DNA of 11,130 nucleotides. Source: a virus. Under the pieces are notes generated by a model. That model was not told where the DNA came from. It made no database searches and saw only the letters and a list, made by a program, of their open reading frames with translations. Below, one piece after another: positions 757-11,130 of the stretch. Numbering within the stretch: the first letter of the stretch is position 1; every line of letters begins with the position of its first letter. Where the stretch lies: UHGV virus genome UHGV-0057427. One strand, given 5' to 3'. Both the position numbers and the translations under genes were made by a program.

Positions 757-1095
757 CTATTTCCCTGAATTTACGACGAAACTGTTCGAGCGGGCTGAAG
801 CACTCATGCTCATAGCCTTCGCGGAGGTAGATAACACGTTGTGTTTCCGGCTCCCAACGAATGACTCTGACGGGCACTCCGTAGTGATCTTTGAACCAGC
901 GGTTAACTTGTCGCAAAGGACTGTCTCCTTCTGCCGGTTGAAATCACCCACAGCCCACTCTGCAAAGCTGTGGGTTACAATTTCCCTGTCACCTGGTACA
1001 TTTACTGCATAGCAATACTCCACCTTCGCTTTTCCACCCGGTACAGGAAGCGCAATCAGTTGCGAGCGACGGTAGTGTGTTGTTAAACTGTTCAT
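757..1095 (-). CDS. Hypothetical protein (112 aa) between the CII-like and O-like genes
   Basis: ATG at 1095-1093 overlaps the TGA stop of the upstream CII-like ORF (ATGA coupling), same strand as the cro-cII-O operon. Composition is unremarkable and S/T-rich at the C-terminus; no motif recognised. An antisense plus-strand ORF (740-1012) also exists, so coding status is uncertain. Confidence 0.35.
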
Positions 1096-1655
1096 GCGTT
1101 AGTTTCTCCACAGTCACGACACGCCACGGCGCCCGGAGCTGCACACTCGCGGGCGTCATTACTTTCTGAAATGCAAAAAATTTTGTAGACCAGTGCTGCA
1201 TGCTCCTGCAGCTTCGAAATTGAGAGGTACAGCTCGTCGTTAATTGCTGTCTTCTCATGCGGTTCCACTACACCGTCTTCAATTGCTGAACGAATCTGTT
1301 TTGAATAACTGCCGATCTGTTCAATGACTTCCAGCAGGCGCTGGTTAATATCGGCGTTGTCCACATCCTCGACGTCAGGAAGAGACACAAAGACGCCATT
1401 TGCAGACTGCGCCACAGCATCAGCAATGAAGTGAGTGCCACCAGCACGCTGTAAAACCATTGCCCATCCCAGCGGGAAAATCTGATCGCCATCTGCACGA
1501 AGGCGGTTGAATAAAGCGTTTTCTGTTACATCGAGCCAATCAGCCGCTTCAGCGTAACCACCCGGCAACGCCGCGATAGTTTTTCTGACAGCTTTCACGT
1601 ACCACTCAGGCTGTTTTTCTATTTTCCAGTGATGCTTACCCACGATTAGCCTCAT
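1092..1655 (-). CDS. Phage regulatory protein at the CII position (CII-like/YdaT-like), 187 aa
   Basis: Intact ORF directly downstream of the cro-like gene and upstream of the replication gene, same strand, stop overlapping the next start. Assignment is positional; I cannot confirm family membership without an HMM search. Confidence 0.45.
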
Positions 1656-1977: not shown

Positions 1978-2652
1978 ATGAAAACAATCCATGACATCCG
2001 GCGGTCTAACGCCAGAAAACTGAGAGATGGTGTTGGCGGGAATTCTTCCTTTGCCACTATGATTGATCGCGAGCCAACCCAGACCAGCAGGTTTATGGGA
2101 GATGGTGCTACTAAAAATATCGGTGACAGCATGGCACGACACATAGAAAAATGTTTCGACCTGCCTGTCGGATGGCTCGATCAAGAACACCAGACAACGA
2201 ACATCACAAAAAAACCTGATGTTTCAATCACTAATAAACAAATCACATTAGTCCCTGTCATATCATGGGTACAGGCCGGAGCATGGAAAGAAGTTGGATA
2301 TTCTGAGGTTGATTTGAGCACAGCAGAAACGTATCCCTGCCCTGTACCCTGTGGGGAAATGACTTATATCTTGCGGGTGATAGGTGATTCAATGATTGAT
2401 GAGTACCGCCCGGGAGACATGATTTTTGTCGATCCTGAAGTACCTGCCTGCCACGGTGACGACGTTATTGCATTGATGCACGATACAGGTGAAACCACCT
2501 TCAAAAGGTTGATAGAAGATGGGACACAGCGTTATCTCAAAGCGTTAAACCCAAACTGGCCTGAGCCTTACATTAAGATCAACGGTAATTGCTCTATAAT
2601 TGGAACTGTGATTTTCTCAGGAAAACCAAGAAGATACAAAATCAAAGCTTAA
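1978..2652 (+). CDS. cI: CI-type phage repressor, N-terminal HTH plus C-terminal S24 (LexA-like) autopeptidase domain, 224 aa
   Basis: C-terminal half aligns by eye with lambda CI (TFKRLIEDGTQRYLKALNPNWPEPYIKINGNCSIIGTVI versus lambda [36 protein letters not shown]), with the GDSM serine motif and a downstream Lys. No SD precedes the ATG at 1978, consistent with a leaderless PRM-type transcript. Confidence 0.88.
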   Translation: MKTIHDIRRSNARKLRDGVGGNSSFATMIDREPTQTSRFMGDGATKNIGDSMARHIEKCFDLPVGWLDQEHQTTNITKKPDVSITNKQITLVPVISWVQAGAWKEVGYSEVDLSTAETYPCPVPCGEMTYILRVIGDSMIDEYRPGDMIFVDPEVPACHGDDVIALMHDTGETTFKRLIEDGTQRYLKALNPNWPEPYIKINGNCSIIGTVIFSGKPRRYKIKA

Positions 2653-3851: not shown

Positions 3852-4214
3852 ATGGCTAGCGAACGCAGTACTGATGTGCAGGCATTTATCGGGGAGCTGG
3901 ACGGCGGCGTATTTGAAACCAAAATCGGCGCAGTTCTCAGTGAAGTCGCTTCCGGTGTGATGAACACGAAAACCAAAGGGAAGGTCTCACTCAATCTGGA
4001 AATCGAACCGTTTGATGAGAACCGTGTGAAAATCAAACACAAACTCTCATATGTTCGCCCGACTAACCGCGGGAAAATTTCCGAAGAAGACACCACCGAA
4101 ACGCCGATGTATGTCAATCGCGGTGGTCGCCTGACTATTCTGCAGGAAGACTATGGACAAATACTGACTCTTGCCGGTGAACCTGACGGAAAACTACGCG
4201 CAGCAGGTCATTAA
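3852..4214 (+). CDS. Phage early protein, 120 aa (yfdP-like by position and size), unknown function
   Basis: The track ORF 3534-4214 is extended through the noncoding region; ATG at 3852 has GAGGAG 7 nt upstream and gives MASERSTDVQAFIGELDGGVFETKIGAVLSEVASGVMNTK.... It is the first gene of a co-directional operon. Confidence 0.55.
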   Translation: MASERSTDVQAFIGELDGGVFETKIGAVLSEVASGVMNTKTKGKVSLNLEIEPFDENRVKIKHKLSYVRPTNRGKISEEDTTETPMYVNRGGRLTILQEDYGQILTLAGEPDGKLRAAGH

Positions 4215-4279
4215 TATCGTTCTTAATAAACTGATTATTTATCTCATCACTGAATATCTTTATATAGTGAGGACTTATT

Positions 4280-5104
4280 ATGTCTCAGAACTTAGACGCA
4301 ACCGCAATTAATCAAATCCATGCCCTTATTTCTGCTCAGGGTGTTAATGAAATTATCAGTAAGATTGGTGCCGATGCTGTGGCATTGCCTGAGAATTTCC
4401 GCATTCATGATCTGGAAAAATTTAATTTAAATCGCTTCCGTTTCCGTGGTGCGCTTTCCACTGCCAGCATCGATGACTTTACCCGTTATTCTAAAGATCT
4501 TGCAGATGAAGGCACCCGCTGCTTTATCGATGCTGATAATATGCGTGCCGTCAGTGTGCTTAACCTGGGTACTATTGATGAACCAGGTCACGCAGATAAC
4601 ACCGCCACTCTCAAACTGAAAAAGACAGCACCGTTCTCTGCCCTGTTGTCTGTTAACGGCGAGCGTAACTCCCAGAAGTCACTGGCAGAATGGATTGAAG
4701 ACTGGGCCGACTACCTTGTGGGCTTTGATGCTAATGGTGACGCCATTCAGGCAACCAAAGCGGCTGCGGCGATCCGTAAAATCACAATTGAAGCGAACCA
4801 GACCGCTGATTTTGAAGATAATGACTTCAGCGGCAAACGCTCCCTGATGGAGTCTGTCGAAGCGAAGACCAAAGACATTATGCCAGTGGCATTTGAATTT
4901 AAATGCGTTCCGTTTGAAGGTCTGAAAGAACGTCCGTTTAAATTACGCCTCAGCATTATCACTGGCGATCGTCCTGTACTGGTACTACGCATTATTCAGC
5001 TGGAAGCAGTGCAGGAGGAAATGGCTAACGAATTTCGTGATCTGCTTGTTGAGAAGTTCAAAGACAGCAAAGTAGAAACCTTTATTGGTACTTTCACCGC
5101 CTGA
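4280..5104 (+). CDS. yfdQ: YfdQ-like prophage protein (274 aa)
   Basis: ATG with GAGGA SD; length equals my recollection of K-12 CPS-53 YfdQ (274 aa) and it is followed by an HD-domain protein of YfdR size. The assignment is by size and synteny, not by alignment. Confidence 0.6.
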
Positions 5105-5231
5105 TTTCATTACTGCAAATGCCCCTGCGGGGGCATTTATGGAAACGTAATTAACTCAATAATCACCGGATGGTGAGGGCATCCTTTTACCAGAATTCAG
5201 CGCGGTGCAGTGCATATACGTGGAGAACAAA

Positions 5232-5768
5232 ATGTCATTTATTAAAACTTTTTCCGGGAAGCATTTTTATTATGACAGGATAAATAAAGACAACATCGAT
5301 ATTAACGATATCGCGGTTTCCCTTTCAAATATCTGTCGCTTTGCAGGACATCTTTCACACTTCTACAGCGTCGCCCAACATGCGGTGCTTTGCAGCCAGC
5401 TGGTACCGCAGGAATTTGCTTTTGAAGCGTTAATGCATGATGCAACAGAAGCTTATTGTCAGGACATCCCCGCGCCACTGAAACGCCTTCTTCCTGACTA
5501 TAAACGGATGGAAGAAAAAATAGACGCCGTAATCCGTGAGAAATACGGGTTACCCCCGGTTATGAGTACACCCGTGAAATATGCCGATCTCATCATGCTG
5601 GCAACCGAACGCCGCGATCTCGGGCTTGATGATGGCTCTTTCTGGCCTGTACTGGAAGGCATCCCGGCAACAGAGATGTTCAACGTGATTCCACTGGCAC
5701 CGGGCCATGCCTACGGGATGTTTATGGAACGTTTTAACGAGTTATCGGAGTTACGCAAATGCGCATGA
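5232..5768 (+). CDS. yfdR: HD-domain phosphohydrolase, YfdR-like (178 aa)
   Basis: ATG at 5232 preceded by GGAGAA; protein contains H...HD motifs (AQHAVLCSQL...EALMHDATEAY) typical of HD-domain 5'-deoxynucleotidase-like proteins; length 178 aa matches my recollection of K-12 YfdR. The track start at 5205 lacks an SD. Confidence 0.7.
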   Translation: MSFIKTFSGKHFYYDRINKDNIDINDIAVSLSNICRFAGHLSHFYSVAQHAVLCSQLVPQEFAFEALMHDATEAYCQDIPAPLKRLLPDYKRMEEKIDAVIREKYGLPPVMSTPVKYADLIMLATERRDLGLDDGSFWPVLEGIPATEMFNVIPLAPGHAYGMFMERFNELSELRKCA

Positions 5769-6121
5769 ATGTTTTCGAAATGGAAGGGTTTCTTCGTGGG
5801 AGATGTGTACCGCGAGATCTCAAAGTGAATGAAACAGATGCTGAATACCTGGTGCGCAAATTCGATGCGCTTGAAGCTAAATGTGCGGCACTGGAAAACA
5901 AAATAATACCAGTGTCAGCTGAACTGCCACCAGCAAATGAAAGTGTTCTGTTATTTGATGCTAATGGAGAAGGCTGGCTGATTGGCTGGCGTTCTCTCTG
6001 GTACACCTGGGGACAAAAAGAAACCGGAGAATGGCAGTGGACATTTCAGGTCGGGGACCTTGAAAACGTCAATATCACTCACTGGGCAGTAATGCCAAAA
6101 GCACCGGAGGCTGGAGCATAA
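5759..6121 (+). CDS. Hypothetical prophage protein, 120 aa (yfdS-like by size and position)
   Basis: ATG at 5759 overlaps the yfdR-like stop by 10 nt, with GGAG 8 nt upstream; compact operon organisation. Confidence 0.5.
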   Translation: MRMNVFEMEGFLRGRCVPRDLKVNETDAEYLVRKFDALEAKCAALENKIIPVSAELPPANESVLLFDANGEGWLIGWRSLWYTWGQKETGEWQWTFQVGDLENVNITHWAVMPKAPEAGA

Positions 6122-6345
6122 TGACCACATTTACCAATAAAGAACTGATTAAAGAAATTAAAGAGCGTATCAGCAGCCTTGACGTGCGAGACGATATTGA
6201 GCGCCGTGCTTATGAAATCGCACTTGTATCTCTGGAAGTAGAGCCAGATGAACGCGAAGCCTATGAATTATTCATGGAAAAGCGTTTCGGTGACTTAGTA
6301 GATCGTCGGAAAGCAAAAAACGGCGATAACGAATACATGGCATGA
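6121..6345 (+). CDS. Small acidic hypothetical protein, 74 aa
   Basis: ATG overlaps the previous stop (TAATG); sequence MTTFTNKELIKEIKERISSLDVRDDIERRAYEIALVSLEVEPDEREAYELF is charged and helical with no recognised motif. Confidence 0.45.
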   Translation: MTTFTNKELIKEIKERISSLDVRDDIERRAYEIALVSLEVEPDEREAYELFMEKRFGDLVDRRKAKNGDNEYMA

Positions 6346-6425
6346 GATATGACTCTCAGCTGGGTTGTCTGTCAGCAACGCACTGGAATGAGTCTTTAAA
6401 CTGTACAACCGCTGGAGGGTCAGCA

Positions 6426-6620
6426 ATGAACAACTTAATGACAACTAAACAAGTCGCCGACTTCTGTGGCGTTTCAGTATCAACAGTACTTCGCTGGAAC
6501 AGCGTAAACAGGAGGACAGGCCAGAAATACAGGCCAGATTTTCCAGATCCTGATATTAAATCCTGCCCAAATAAATGGGCATCACGCAAGATTTATAGGT
6601 TTGCGGGAATTATTGAGTAA
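6426..6620 (+). CDS. Excisionase/AlpA-family HTH DNA-binding protein (64 aa)
   Basis: ATG at 6426 has GGAGGG 6 nt upstream. N-terminus MNNLMTTKQVADFCGVSVSTVLRW is the typical excisionase-family HTH (T-x-Q-V-A...G-V-S...T-V-x-R-W). It is the last gene of the early operon, near the integrase. The track start at 6342 adds an unlikely extension. Confidence 0.55.
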   Translation: MNNLMTTKQVADFCGVSVSTVLRWNSVNRRTGQKYRPDFPDPDIKSCPNKWASRKIYRFAGIIE

Positions 6621-6629
6621 CGTGTATTA

Positions 6630-6659
6630 GTCACAGATGTGAACAGACACATCTGTGAC
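6630..6659. repeat. Perfect 12-bp inverted repeat (hairpin or protein-binding dyad) immediately after the excisionase-like gene
   Basis: GTCACAGATGTG (6630-6641), 6-nt loop aacaga, CACATCTGTGAC (6648-6659); no U tract follows, so it is not a canonical intrinsic terminator. Confidence 0.5.
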
Positions 6660-6983
6660 ACAGAACCAAATCTAATCTGAGTGTCCACTTTGTGGTGTGA
6701 GTTCAACCGATGGATGCAACACACAGGCGGAAGCTGAATGCATACTCACCTTTGTATCCCAGCGTGCTGTAACAATGAACAACAACACTCTGGTGATTTG
6801 ACGAGTGCTTAAATTCTTTCAGTAACAATGTATTGTTAGTTTACATAGTTGTAAATAAATATAGTTTATTGTAACATTTTGCTTGCAATGTCATTTAAGC
6901 AACCTGCTTACTTTGAGGGCTTTGATGATAGATGAATCCTTACTAAAATTATCATTTTTATGTATTGATTGAAGAGAAGATTA

Positions 6984-8984
6984 ATGATAGATAAATCAAT
7001 TACTAACCCTGGTTTCCATAAGCAGTTTCTATTAGAAAGGTTCAATGCTGATGAACAAAAAATATTAAAGTTATTATCAAAAGGATGGTATTTAACTAAT
7101 TCTGGCGAGGAGTTACAAATTGCTCAATCCAGATATAATTATTTTCTGATGAAACCTACACCAAAAACCTCTGAAATGTTCAACATTGAGAGAGAGATTG
7201 TTTGTGTATTTAGTAACTACGATTATTTTGAACCAAGAACATTAGATTTTTTCGAACAAGTTTACATGCGTCTTCCAAAGATGCGCACAGAGATGGTTTG
7301 TGCTGTTCTAATTGGCAGAGCTCCTGATACAGAAGAAAAGGTTGAACAGCTTCTTAAAGCTGATCCAGAGCATCAAATCATTGTACCTGTTAGTTATACT
7401 GAAATGATGTGCACAGATGCACTTCGAACACTTGAAAATAGATTTAGAAAACATTTCTACTCTCGAGATTTATTCTCCTTTTTATCTCCACTTAAAAAAG
7501 ATACATACTTTTTTGGTCGTTCAAATCTTATCAATGAGATTGTAAATCGATTCCAATCTGGGGAGCACACTAGCCTTTTTGGTCTTAGGAAAAGCGGAAA
7601 AACATCGATTGTATATGCAATCCAGAGACGTTTAGAGGCAAAAGGAGATTGTTTTGTATCATTAGATTGCGAAAGCCCATCAATACATGGCCTTCGCTGG
7701 TATGAATTACTTGAGAAACTAGTATTATTATATCTAGAGGCAAAAAAATCTAAAGTTAAAATTAACACATCTGGTAGATATGATGTTAAGAATGCTGCAG
7801 AGAGCTTTGAAACAGATATATTAAAAATTTACAACTCAAAAAAAACAGCAAGTGCTATATTTATTTTCGATGAAATTGAAAGAATTACACCGACAACGGG
7901 AGCTTCGATTCACTGGAGAGAAGAAACCGATTTTATATACTTTTGGCAGACAATGCGCGGTTTTTACCAGAAACATCCGTCTGTTTTCTGTTATATGTTA
8001 GTTGGCACAAACCCAAGTTGTATAGAAACACCATCATTATTGGGGCATGACAATCCAATTTATGCTTCAATTCAAAGCCAATATGTTCCTCCTTTTACTG
8101 TTGATCAAGTTAGTCAAATGGTTACACGTTTAGGTGATTATATGGGATTAAAATTTGACAATTTGATCACTGCAAAACTGGCAGAAGACTATGGCGGACA
8201 TCCATTTTTAATTCGCCAAGCTTGCAGCCAAATTAACAAGCTAATCCCTTCAGATAGACCTGTAACAATTGATAAATCTCTATATAATAAGTCTAAGATC
8301 GAGTTTAGGAACAACTCTCAGGAGTATTTAGCAATGATGATTCAGGTATTGTCGGAATGGTATCCTGATGAGTACGAAATGCTATGTTTACTCGCTCAAG
8401 GGGATATGGATAGTTTCAATTCATTTGCTCAGGATCATACATCTTATACTCGACATTTAATTGGCTATGGGCTTATTCAAAAAGGCACATCTGGTTATTC
8501 CTTTAACCTTGAGGAAATTTCTGATTTGCTTAGAAAAAAACATCAACATGAAAGATTAAACCTGACAGATGAAGAAAAGGTTCAAGAGATTTCAATTAGA
8601 AGAAATCGCTTAGAAAAAGGTTTGCGGATACTTGTCAGGAACACATTAAAAATATATAAGGGTTCAAATAAAGCAAAAGATGCTGTTATTTCTGCAGTTC
8701 CTGATGGGCGAAAATCAACATTACAAAATTACGATTTATCCAAACTATTAGATCCTGATTCATCTCCATTATTCTTTCTCGAATTAATTAACATAATTAC
8801 GAGAGAGTGGGTGATTTTTGATAATGTTTTTGGGATTAATAAAGAAAAAATAAAAATTATGCTTGAGGAAATTAACACTAAAGGACGTCCAGATGCACAT
8901 GCAAAATGTATTGACGAAGATGATTTTCAGCAATTAAGGCTTTACTTCAAAAAGCTTGAGTTAATACTTCAAGAGTGGTTATAA
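6984..8984 (+). CDS. P-loop NTPase with STAND/ORC-Cdc6-type AAA+ motif order, unknown N- and C-terminal domains (666 aa); candidate defense cargo
   Basis: Walker A GLRKSGKTS (nt 7581-7607) preceded by FFGRSNLINEIVNRF, Walker B IFIFDE (nt 7860-7874), sensor-1-like MLVGTN, GxP-like YGGHPFLIRQ. Codon usage is visibly AT-rich compared with neighbours. First ATG at 6984 with purine-rich SD; track start 6969 is TTG. Stands alone between xis-like and int. Confidence 0.8.
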   Translation: MIDKSITNPGFHKQFLLERFNADEQKILKLLSKGWYLTNSGEELQIAQSRYNYFLMKPTPKTSEMFNIEREIVCVFSNYDYFEPRTLDFFEQVYMRLPKMRTEMVCAVLIGRAPDTEEKVEQLLKADPEHQIIVPVSYTEMMCTDALRTLENRFRKHFYSRDLFSFLSPLKKDTYFFGRSNLINEIVNRFQSGEHTSLFGLRKSGKTSIVYAIQRRLEAKGDCFVSLDCESPSIHGLRWYELLEKLVLLYLEAKKSKVKINTSGRYDVKNAAESFETDILKIYNSKKTASAIFIFDEIERITPTTGASIHWREETDFIYFWQTMRGFYQKHPSVFCYMLVGTNPSCIETPSLLGHDNPIYASIQSQYVPPFTVDQVSQMVTRLGDYMGLKFDNLITAKLAEDYGGHPFLIRQACSQINKLIPSDRPVTIDKSLYNKSKIEFRNNSQEYLAMMIQVLSEWYPDEYEMLCLLAQGDMDSFNSFAQDHTSYTRHLIGYGLIQKGTSGYSFNLEEISDLLRKKHQHERLNLTDEEKVQEISIRRNRLEKGLRILVRNTLKIYKGSNKAKDAVISAVPDGRKSTLQNYDLSKLLDPDSSPLFFLELINIITREWVIFDNVFGINKEKIKIMLEEINTKGRPDAHAKCIDEDDFQQLRLYFKKLELILQEWL

Positions 8985-9081
8985 GTGAACGCAATAAATT
9001 AGTGTCATTTACCAATTAAATTTTATACCTAGCCCTACTTCGTTGTGGCAGGTATATGATTAAGCACTTAAATCAGCCCGC

Positions 9082-10356
9082 TTATCGTTCAAAGCGGGCT
9101 GTCAGATTTGATTGAGTCCTACTAAGCAAACTATCAGTTGTGTCCGCACTAGTACAAGTAATGATCGATTCAACTCTCTCCCACCATGCCTGGTAGGCTT
9201 TACGCTGTTCTTCTAGATAATCGCTCTTGTCATAAACTTGCCATACCCCTGGCAGTTTATGACCTAGCATTATTTCTGCAATATGAGGCGCAGTAAGATC
9301 AGAAAAGTTTGTTCGTGCTGTTCGCCTCAAATCATGAAGAGACCAATGAGGGAATTGATACCCCAAACGCCGCCATGCGTACTGCATTAAATTGTAAGGC
9401 AGCGACTGCAATGATGTCCGACCAACGGGTTCCCTGCTTCCTTCCTTAGTAAAAAGCATATCGGAACCATTATTCATAGAAATAGCGTACTTTATAAGCT
9501 CTTCAACCGGTTCAATAATGGGCCGCTTTAGCGGTTCGCCCGTTATCTCCCCAGTCTTATGTCGTTCTGGTGGTACAGTCCATACTTTATTAATGAAATC
9601 AAAATCGTCCACCCTGGCGGTAATTAGCTCTGAACTACGGCAGCCAAAATGCAGCAATAGTTTAATGAAGGCCCGGTATTTAGGAACCATTCGAGAACCA
9701 TCGATCGCAGCATAAAGGATTTTAATTTCATCATGTGTCAGAAACCGTTTCTTCTGACCTTTACGGATATCCATATCTTTACCCGTGATATCCGACAACG
9801 GGCGAGTTTCAATGAGCTTTCTCTTATACGCCCAGACATGGGCCTGCTTTGCGTTAATTAGCAATCGGTCTGCTATTGCTGGAGTCTTAGTGCTAAGAGG
9901 CTCCAGGACTTCTAACCAATCATGCAATGTAGCTGCATCGTGAGGGATATTCCCGATTTTAGAGAACAGGTGCAGCTCAAACGAGCGGAGTATCTGTTCA
10001 GAACCTTTTTTATTTTTTACACAATATGCTTCATACCAGGCACGGATCACAGACTCTACCGTCATGGCTTCAGTAGCTTTTCGTTTTTCAGCCTGCTTGA
10101 CCAATCGTGGATTACGGTTTGACTCGAGTTCACCACGGAGACGGGTAACTTCTTCTCTGGCCTCTTTTAATCCAGTTGCCGGGTAAGTTCCGATATCAAG
10201 ACGCTCACCTTTCCCTGCCCATTGATAACGATATTGGAACACTACGCGACCTTTCGGTGATACTCTGACAGACAGACCATCACGATCGGATTTAACCAAA
10301 ACCTTATCACGTTCCTTTCCAACGACTGAACGCAACCACGCATCAGACAGCGCCAT
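9082..10356 (-). CDS. int: Phage integrase, tyrosine recombinase (424 aa)
   Basis: N-terminal arm-binding-type region (GLSVRVSPKGRVVFQYRYQWAGKGERLDIGTYPATGLKEAREE), C-terminal catalytic signatures HDLRRTART and conserved Tyr region (LGHKLPGVWQVYDKSDY). It lies adjacent to the host junction. Confidence 0.9.
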   Translation of the reverse strand: MALSDAWLRSVVGKERDKVLVKSDRDGLSVRVSPKGRVVFQYRYQWAGKGERLDIGTYPATGLKEAREEVTRLRGELESNRNPRLVKQAEKRKATEAMTVESVIRAWYEAYCVKNKKGSEQILRSFELHLFSKIGNIPHDAATLHDWLEVLEPLSTKTPAIADRLLINAKQAHVWAYKRKLIETRPLSDITGKDMDIRKGQKKRFLTHDEIKILYAAIDGSRMVPKYRAFIKLLLHFGCRSSELITARVDDFDFINKVWTVPPERHKTGEITGEPLKRPIIEPVEELIKYAISMNNGSDMLFTKEGSREPVGRTSLQSLPYNLMQYAWRRLGYQFPHWSLHDLRRTARTNFSDLTAPHIAEIMLGHKLPGVWQVYDKSDYLEEQRKAYQAWWERVESIITCTSADTTDSLLSRTQSNLTARFER

Positions 10357-10585
10357 TACTCACCTTGTACAAATCGCAAAACACCTCTGCTGCTTTGTAC
10401 ATTATGTACAAGAATATGTACAGATTTTTGATGAAAGCAAGCTGATCGATTTAAAGTTACATGAAAGAATCTTCAATTAAAGAAGCCACATAACTAAATG
10501 TATTTAAATGAGTTATATAGCTCAACCTCAATTAACTGAAAGGATTTTGAAAGAGTAAAAGAGCTTTAATTTGGGCTTAATTATT
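10357..10585. promoter_or_regulatory. attL phage arm / integrase upstream region with clustered TGTACA motifs
   Basis: AT-rich; TTGTACAA (10365-10372), TTTGTACATTATGTACAAG (10394-10412), ATGTACAG (10416-10423) share the GTAC core of the cI/cro operators. The region ends where the prfC reading frame begins to match the host. Confidence 0.45.
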
Positions 10586-10651
10586 GGGGTGAGAAATAAT
10601 GGCAAAAGTGCGGCGCTTCGCCACCTCTTGCAAATAAGGAGACAACGTCAT
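10586..10651 (-). pseudogene. prfC: prfC 5' fragment (first 22 codons of peptide chain release factor 3) interrupted by the prophage
   Basis: Minus-strand ATG at 10651-10649 translates to [22 protein letters not shown], which matches my recollection of the E. coli RF3 N-terminus, then NN-stop where host sequence would continue DAGKTT. A 90-bp spacer separates it from the yjjG stop. Confidence 0.6.
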
Positions 10652-10741
10652 AATTCTTTCTTCTTGAGTAAGCGGCATCGCGCCGCGCTTGTTGAAAACG
10701 AAAAATTGCGGCTATTTTACCCATCAACGGGGGGGAGGCAA

Positions 10742-11130
10742 TCAGTGTTTACACAGGAGCTGCTCCAGTTCGTGCAACGAAGAAACGGTCCAGGTGGGCG
10801 CGATGCCTTCTGGTTGCTCGCGATGGTGCGCATTCAGCCAGCAGGTCGCAAGCCCGGCGTTGATGCCACCGAGAATATCGGACTCGGCAGTGTCGCCAAC
10901 CATCAGCACGCGTGAACGGTCAGGATTGCCCGCCTGTTCCAGCGCATAATCGAAAATTTTCTTATTCGGTTTGGCAACGCCAACTTCTTCGGAAATCACC
11001 AGCAAATCGAAGTAATCACGCAGGCCCGTGCGTTCCAGACGCACTTGCTGCAAGGCGCTAAAGCCGTTGGTGATGATGCCGATTTTGGCGTTGCCACGAA
11101 TGGCGTTAAGCAGAGAAACCGCGCCCGGCA
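10742..11130 (-). CDS. yjjG: Pyrimidine 5'-nucleotidase YjjG (HAD family), C-terminal part; N-terminus beyond window end
   Basis: Minus-strand translation ...[117 protein letters not shown] matches the E. coli YjjG C-terminus as I recall it; TGA stop at 10744-10742. Confidence 0.9.

Follow-up and report, generated by a model that had tools for sequence, protein, structure and literature searches.

What happens to a host gene when a temperate phage integrates into its first codons, and can the promoter of the interrupted gene serve the phage? Both questions are raised by one end of the 11,130-nt stretch of DNA analysed here in full (the window; UHGV virus genome UHGV-0057427), where the start of prfC, the gene for release factor 3 (RF3), runs into phage sequence ahead of an integrase gene, int. 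An earlier note, made from the letters alone, had placed a prophage inside the 5′ coding region of prfC and asked whether the other prophage end rebuilds the gene and whether int is read from the host prfC promoter. The arrangement is real and already known: it was described for an Stx1 phage (Ogura 2007), for phage cdtI (Asakura 2007) and for the SXT element (Hochhut & Waldor 1999), and the note was correct in naming prfC as a prophage integration locus of E. coli (PMC2323221, PMC10132054, PMC5764929). What we add are a map of core and arms to exact positions, the prevalence of the junction, a synonymous-only signature in the phage-borne prfC segment, the repeat architecture of the arms, a geometry shared across the integrase family and a sister group of integrases which targets lepA. 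We are highly confident that the region is the attL of a lambda-like temperate phage which carries a surrogate prfC 5′ end in its attP and attR, and that the chimeric open reading frame is intact.

The junction within prfC

Read along the minus strand, the host side of the junction begins with the 3′ part of yjjG, the gene of a pyrimidine 5′-nucleotidase (10742..11130; annotated as yjjG at an identical locus), whose stop codon TGA lies at 10744-10742. It is followed by the yjjG–prfC spacer of 90 bp (10741-10652, minus strand) and by a truncated prfC open reading frame (10577..10651, minus strand), which starts with the ATG at 10651, keeps 22 host codons, as seen from its translation and the alignment with K-12, and closes after 24 codons with a phage-encoded Asn-Asn-stop (stop codon at 10579-10577). 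Direct reading and translation bear out the figures of the earlier note, which had put the intergenic region at 90 bp, the prfC part at about 66 bp and the stop two codons after it. In genomes sharing the junction, PGAP marks this fragment, prfC′, as an incomplete pseudogene ("hypothetical protein, incomplete"). The spacer holds a candidate host prfC promoter, TTGCCT-16-TAAAAT (10714..10741, minus strand), which was recognized by its match to the consensus, is identical to the K-12 sequence and was the sole sigma-70-like match in a promoter scan of positions 10250-10800. As this promoter-like site is kept upstream of the truncated prfC, it faces int on the same strand, in the orientation that the note had claimed.

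When the window was aligned with the uninterrupted yjjG–prfC locus of K-12, the check proposed in the note, host identity ran to position 10587, the second base of Pro22, and the sequence beyond was unrelated; over these 65 nt of prfC, and over the spacer upstream, the window is identical to K-12. Together with alignments of the att sites this delimits a 14-bp core, ATTATTTCTCACCC (10587..10600, minus strand), which covers prfC nt 52-65 (codons Ile18-Pro22) and is the only stretch common to attB, attL, attR and attP. The prophage does lie inside the 5′ coding region of prfC, and its attL junction at codon 22 with this core is a feature of the prfC lambdoid phages. A repeat search found no second copy of the core within the 11,130-nt window; attR lies beyond it. 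The att region contains no exact match to the IHF consensus WATCAANNNNTTR. Attachment at a tRNA-type site, against which the note had also spoken, was rejected, since there is no tRNA or tmRNA gene in the 11-kb window and the core lies within protein-coding sequence.

Could the junction be an assembly artefact, as the note had considered, or a chance likeness to the N-terminus of RF3? A 391-bp query spanning the junction was covered over at least 80% of its length in 700 of 5,426 complete E. coli genomes (about 13%), and the other complete E. coli genomes matched just its first 134 nt, the host part; position 134 of the query is position 10587 of the window. The recurrence of an identical junction in 700 complete genomes means that it is due neither to chance nor to assembly, and with the identity of prfC and spacer to K-12 it refutes this explanation, which retains practically no probability.

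The element and its integrase

Leftward from the junction the window covers the early-left arm of a lambdoid prophage, and the 10.5 kb of the element inside it contain lambdoid phage genes only. These encode a CII-like protein (1092-1655, minus strand), an S24-peptidase repressor (1978-2652, plus strand) and, all on the plus strand, YfdQ (DUF2303; 4280-5104), a YfdR-like protein (5205-5768), a DUF551 protein (5759-6121), the excisionase Xis (6426..6620), an HTH_17 protein 95% identical to the annotated excisionase of 2H10, and a STAND-like NTPase of 671 aa (6969-8984), which has weak nSTAND1/AAA matches and a weak PADLOC match to PDC-S01. The last gene, int (9082..10356, minus strand), is convergent with xis across a cargo slot and so stands outside the early-left operon. 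At 373-449 a unit of 15 bp (consensus about CAGATTTTGACGGGT) with internal inverted symmetry also stands five times in tandem; these iteron-like repeats may mark the replication-origin region of the prophage.

Int is a P4-type tyrosine integrase of 424 aa with the domains Arm-DNA-bind_3, Phage_int_M and Phage_integrase, all above the Pfam cut-offs (PF13356, 61.4 bits; PF22022, 32.2 bits; PF00589, 64.7 bits). Its residues R240, K267, R344, H366 and Y375 are invariant, and H341 is nearly so, among 14 homologues of 51-84% identity; by their positions they are candidates for the catalytic R-K-H-R-H/W-Y residues. The protein is 98% identical to a cluster which comprises 2,139 sequences and bears the source name of an E. 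coli integrase. Between the core and the start of int lies the phage P′ arm (10357..10586, minus strand; 69% A+T), and int and P′ arm together (9082-10600) show 95-98% nucleotide identity over 95-99% of their length to 33 phage records, which include Ayreon, cdtI, 2H10, PhiR63_1 and 27 records of Stx1a- or Stx2c-converting prophages. The same degree of identity is found with the Stx1 phage of O103 and the Stx1a and Stx2c phages of CC119. Stx1a and Stx2c phages at prfC have been described (PMC10132054), and the RF-3 gene is also the reported integration site of cdtI (Asakura 2007) and of Ayreon (PMC5764929).

Might the element instead be an integrative conjugative element of the SXT/R391 type, or a small satellite? 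SXT/R391 elements use the same prfC codons, ...TFAIISHP(D) (Hochhut & Waldor 1999), and IntSXT is homologous to Int. The best 120 of 1,197 Int homologues did not include IntSXT, nor was it found through cluster names or among 80 genome loci, and it was obtained by scanning metagenome contigs with the published SXT int primer. The Int on these primer-found contigs shares 39.5% identity with ours over 405 aa (E = 1e-83), whereas the members of SXT/R391 are defined by Int proteins about 99% identical (PMC2791158). They are, moreover, conjugative elements and not phages, and neither tra genes nor the setCD/setR backbone was found within the 10.5 kb present here. At SXT-type loci the prfC homology extends further (CACCCTGATGCC) than in the window, and int is convergent with prfC′ at a distance of 0.9-2.8 kb, while here int is co-oriented with prfC′ and starts 220 nt past its stop codon. 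In SXT, xis is placed between attL and int (PMC5122569), and expression of int needs SetCD (PMC4344509); its geometry differs from the one described here. With the lambdoid gene content, the near identity to sequenced phage genomes and an Int so distant from IntSXT, membership in the SXT family was rejected, and a conjugative element or satellite is extremely improbable.

The far prophage end and the rebuilt prfC

Does the other prophage end supply a new promoter and 5′ end, so that RF3 can still be made? No complete genome covering at least 80% of the window was found, and the far end was read in relatives. The closest genome, strain MB06234, has an attL 100% identical to that of the window and matches positions 4063-11130 at 99.4%. 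At its attR, ATGACAAGCCTTTTGGCCGCAGAGGTAGCGAAAAGAAGAACCTTTGCA leads into the core and the core into GGATGCCGGTAAG (in the fuller reading ...caattATGACAAGCCTTTTGGCCGCAGAGGTAGCGAAAAGAAGAACCTTTGCA-ATTATTTCTCACCC-GGATGCCGGTAAG...), and the prfC gene at this junction is annotated as intact, with 528 aa. The reconstitution of prfC is thus seen in relatives with an identical attL; the window ends before attR. An attR with the surrogate 5′ end is present in 684 genomes, and the overlapping gene is annotated as prfC or release factor 3 in the records listed. The MB06234 prophage at prfC (L001 20001-33014) is a 12.5-kb remnant with several pseudogenes, in which the early region is joined to fragments of the tail tip. 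This decay has spared the chimeric prfC and the two att junctions, which are still intact.

In the phage, the surrogate is an ATG followed by 16 codons upstream of the core, in MB06234 as well as in the attP of 2H10, cdtI and Ayreon. The 2H10 record holds an uninterrupted attP, in the order dinI-like gene, about 220 bp, the mini-ORF which forms the surrogate, 230 bp and int, and in the cdtI and Ayreon records the surrogate ORF, 230 bp and int are contiguous in the same way. The P arm of about 155 bp is nearly invariant, even in Ayreon, where the upstream flank is unrelated. As the phage start codon is joined in frame to the body of prfC, the lysogen encodes a full-length RF3 of 528 aa in which the first 8 host residues are replaced by 7 phage-encoded ones. 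Natural RF3 N-termini also differ in the replaced stretch, as the examples of Pantoea (MSNPFLEEVARRR) and Pseudomonas (MTNQAAEVAKRR) show. An altered N-terminus of RF-3 was reported for the Stx1 phage of O103, together with the loss of the native ribosome-binding site and promoter, and expression of the gene was called unknown (Ogura 2007; PMC2323221). On the attR side of MB06234 (L001 32546-32860) a divergent dinI-like gene stands beside the surrogate prfC start. Near it we found by eye two LexA-box-like sequences (CTGT-N8-ACAG), CTGTGTTTGTATACAG and CTGTATGAATAAACAG, and the same dinI-like block of L001 contains a promoter-like site, TTGACA-18-AAAAAT, on the opposite strand; the block is absent from Ayreon.

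The nine codons before the core (EVAKRRTFA) differ between phage and host at 8 of 27 nucleotides, and all of these changes are synonymous. When 8 substitutions were drawn at random 200,000 times, the peptide was never retained, from which it follows that the surrogate segment evolved as coding prfC sequence. Did this happen in the phage? The synonymous-only pattern could predate the capture of the segment and have arisen in the prfC of another host, rather than reflect continuing selection; the present-day surrogate copies are 97.8-100% alike, which is too little variation for a test of continuing selection.

A standard sigma-70 scan of the phage P arm found no promoter toward prfC. In a lenient scan the best candidates were TTTTCT-17-CATAAT and TACACC-17-TATGCT, each with 8 of 12 consensus matches and the latter also with an extended -10 TG. 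At the same prfC site, the SXT element reportedly brings with it a functional promoter and an N-terminus (PMC8409611, citing Hochhut & Waldor 1999), and from this analogy we infer that the phage arm supplies the promoter for the chimeric prfC. The question of the earlier note can be answered in part, from related sequences: in relatives the far end provides a new start codon, 16 codons and a prfC of 528 aa, and for the new promoter there are weak matches in the arm and the likeness to SXT.

The P′ arm and transcription of int

No terminator-like site was found in a scan of the 220-nt gap between prfC′ and int. An AU-rich hairpin of 13 bp with a 15-nt loop, followed by UUCUUUAAUU (10483..10523, minus strand), was predicted by folding and is below the criteria for a terminator, and the fold of the whole prfC′–int region was not significant (z-score -1.9). 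The standard scan detected no promoter toward int in the P′ arm either, and the lenient scan gave own-promoter candidates for int with 7-8 of 12 matches. With the host promoter-like site retained, no terminator in the gap and such weak candidates in the arm, transcription which starts at the host prfC promoter and reads through into int appears plausible from the sequence.

Just upstream of int the P′ arm carries four TGTACA palindromes (10366, 10396, 10405 and 10417; span 10366..10422), of which the one nearest to int lies 9 nt before its ATG. These 57 bp hold four of the six copies in the window, and 2.3 copies would be expected per 11 kb. The attP of 2H10 has four copies in each arm around the core, eight of its ten in all. 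The distribution suggests that the repeats are arm-type binding sites of Int, and since they overlap the regions just upstream of int and of the surrogate prfC start, autoregulation would be possible.

Relatives of the integrase

Species-representative genomes were scanned with an alignment of Int homologues, and the sequence upstream of int was inspected. With the exception of Xenorhabdus japonica, the examined loci which encode Int relatives of at least 50% identity and have enough upstream sequence carry a truncated prfC on the int strand, 221-255 bp upstream. They belong to Pantoea, Serratia, Pseudomonas, Marinobacterium, Methylomonas, Methylibium, Variovorax and Microbulbifer and to a Burkholderiaceae MAG. 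Two loci in the 52-53% range stand apart: that of Agitococcus has just 91 bp upstream of int, and in that of Xenorhabdus japonica no prfC fragment was found upstream of int. The same truncated-prfC arrangement occurs in two loci at 45-47% Int identity. Overall, the geometry of prfC′ and int is fixed in 16 of 16 prfC-linked loci, from at least 11 genera and several MAGs.

Other relatives, 44-49% identical to Int, stand behind a different truncated 5′ ORF, which ends in ...IRNFSIIAHID, at the position homologous to ...TFAIISHP of prfC. In these loci (L018, L020, L021, L024, L033, L042 and L043) the ORF lies about 210-245 bp upstream of int, which is at 4001. From its ending, ...NFSIIAHID, we take it to be lepA (EF4), whose N-terminus it resembles. 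These sequences suggest that the integrase clade has been retargeted between paralogous genes of translational GTPases, at the codons which precede the P-loop. If so, a shared DNA motif ahead of the P-loop would be what these integrases recognize.

The layout also has parallels outside this clade. IntB of K-12 at leuX and IntA of CP4-57 have the same three-domain architecture as Int, and their genes are likewise co-oriented, about 200-260 bp downstream of the att site in the target gene. The layout may thus be a trait of the family and not an adaptation specific to prfC. At tRNA and tmRNA genes, however, P4-family elements duplicate the 3′ end of an RNA gene, while here the 5′ end of a protein gene is concerned, and a surrogate promoter and start are needed. 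The strategy is the same in the dusA-specific integrative elements (Farrugia 2015; PMC8409611), which differ in the target gene and in the recombination directionality factor (RdfN).

Discussion

According to the model we favour, the P4-type integrase would recombine the 14-bp core of attP with its identical counterpart in codons 18-22 of the host prfC, just before the GTPase P-loop of the protein. Integration leaves at attL the promoter and ribosome-binding site of the host gene together with its first 22 codons, which there form a dead-end ORF of 24 codons facing int. The body of prfC would be joined at attR to the phage-borne surrogate, with an RBS-like stretch, an ATG and 16 codons, so that the expected order at attR is dinI-like or P-arm sequence, ATGACAAGCCTTTTGGCC...GCA, the core, GGATGCCGGTAAG and an intact prfC. 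In this arrangement int would receive some transcription from an upstream prfC-type promoter, the host's in the lysogen and the phage surrogate's in the circular form.

Is RF3 really made in the lysogen, or is the phage 5′ segment an in-frame relic without transcription, and prfC lost? Bobay et al. (PMC3603311) count prfC among the genes "disrupted" by prophages, Ogura (2007) left the expression undecided, and both the standard and the lenient scan of the P arm failed to give a strong promoter. The essential genes listed for E. coli reportedly do not include prfC (PMC2323221), so that a lysogen which failed to express it would still be viable. Against this, the start codon and the frame are kept and EVAKRRTFA has been preserved through its 8 synonymous changes, the attR junction recurs in the 684 genomes with prfC annotated as intact in the rows listed, the P arm stays the same in phages whose flanks differ, and SXT is described as supplying both promoter and N-terminus at this very site (PMC8409611). 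This evidence from sequence argues that prfC is rebuilt and not lost, contrary to the "disrupted" listing, and we regard its inactivation as improbable.

Could integration, beyond the rebuilding of prfC, be an exchange of promoters? On this account int would have no adequate promoter of its own and would be fed by the host prfC promoter in the lysogen and by the surrogate promoter in the circle. The retained host promoter-like site facing int, the gap free of intrinsic terminators, the weak candidates (7-8 of 12) in the P′ arm, the position of int outside the early-left operon and its constant distance from prfC′ in all 16 prfC-linked loci are consistent with such an exchange. On the other hand, the int of P4 has its own autoregulated promoter, adjoining attP, the layout recurs at leuX-intB of K-12 and at intA of CP4-57 and is maybe general to the family, and an untranslated, AT-rich leader of 220 nt could permit Rho-dependent termination. 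Promoter exchange is therefore a possibility which we consider rather unlikely, and slightly more doubtful still is the joint proposal that integration is a promoter exchange and that the integrases have been retargeted between prfC and lepA. If the exchange did hold, the host prfC promoter, a constitutive one, would feed int in the lysogen, Int would always be present there and directionality would rest on Xis alone, and the outward phage promoter which expresses the chimeric prfC would be the promoter of int in the circular phage.

Returning to the reading in which the phage end rebuilds prfC, the 700 of 5,426 complete E. coli genomes with the junction (about 13%) would encode an RF3 with a phage-derived ribosome-binding site and first residues, and with a promoter which, by inference, also comes from the phage. 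If this surrogate promoter alters the level of RF3, lysogeny could change translation termination and quality control. With the core and both arms as a marker, this prophage family, to which Stx1a-, Stx2c- and Cdt-I-converting phages belong, can be detected and its limits drawn precisely.

The element shares its integration site and an attP with a surrogate prfC 5′ ORF with the other prfC lambdoid phages and differs from them in its cargo, the 671-aa STAND-like NTPase standing where they carry Stx, Cdt, Dsr1 or dGTPase genes. The slot between int and xis appears to be a variable cargo position: similar prfC prophages carry Dsr1 or a dGTPase-family gene there (comparison loci L102 2681-6508 and L103 2869-4095), and other matches are annotated as dCTP deaminase, AIPR, CHAT and HNH proteins. 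Int itself has 424 aa in the window, and its counterparts in 2H10 and in the closest protein cluster have 407 aa; the cluster spans 95% of the query. The difference is C-terminal (window 9082-9135), which suggests that recombination at the cargo slot has its boundary within the 3′ end of int.
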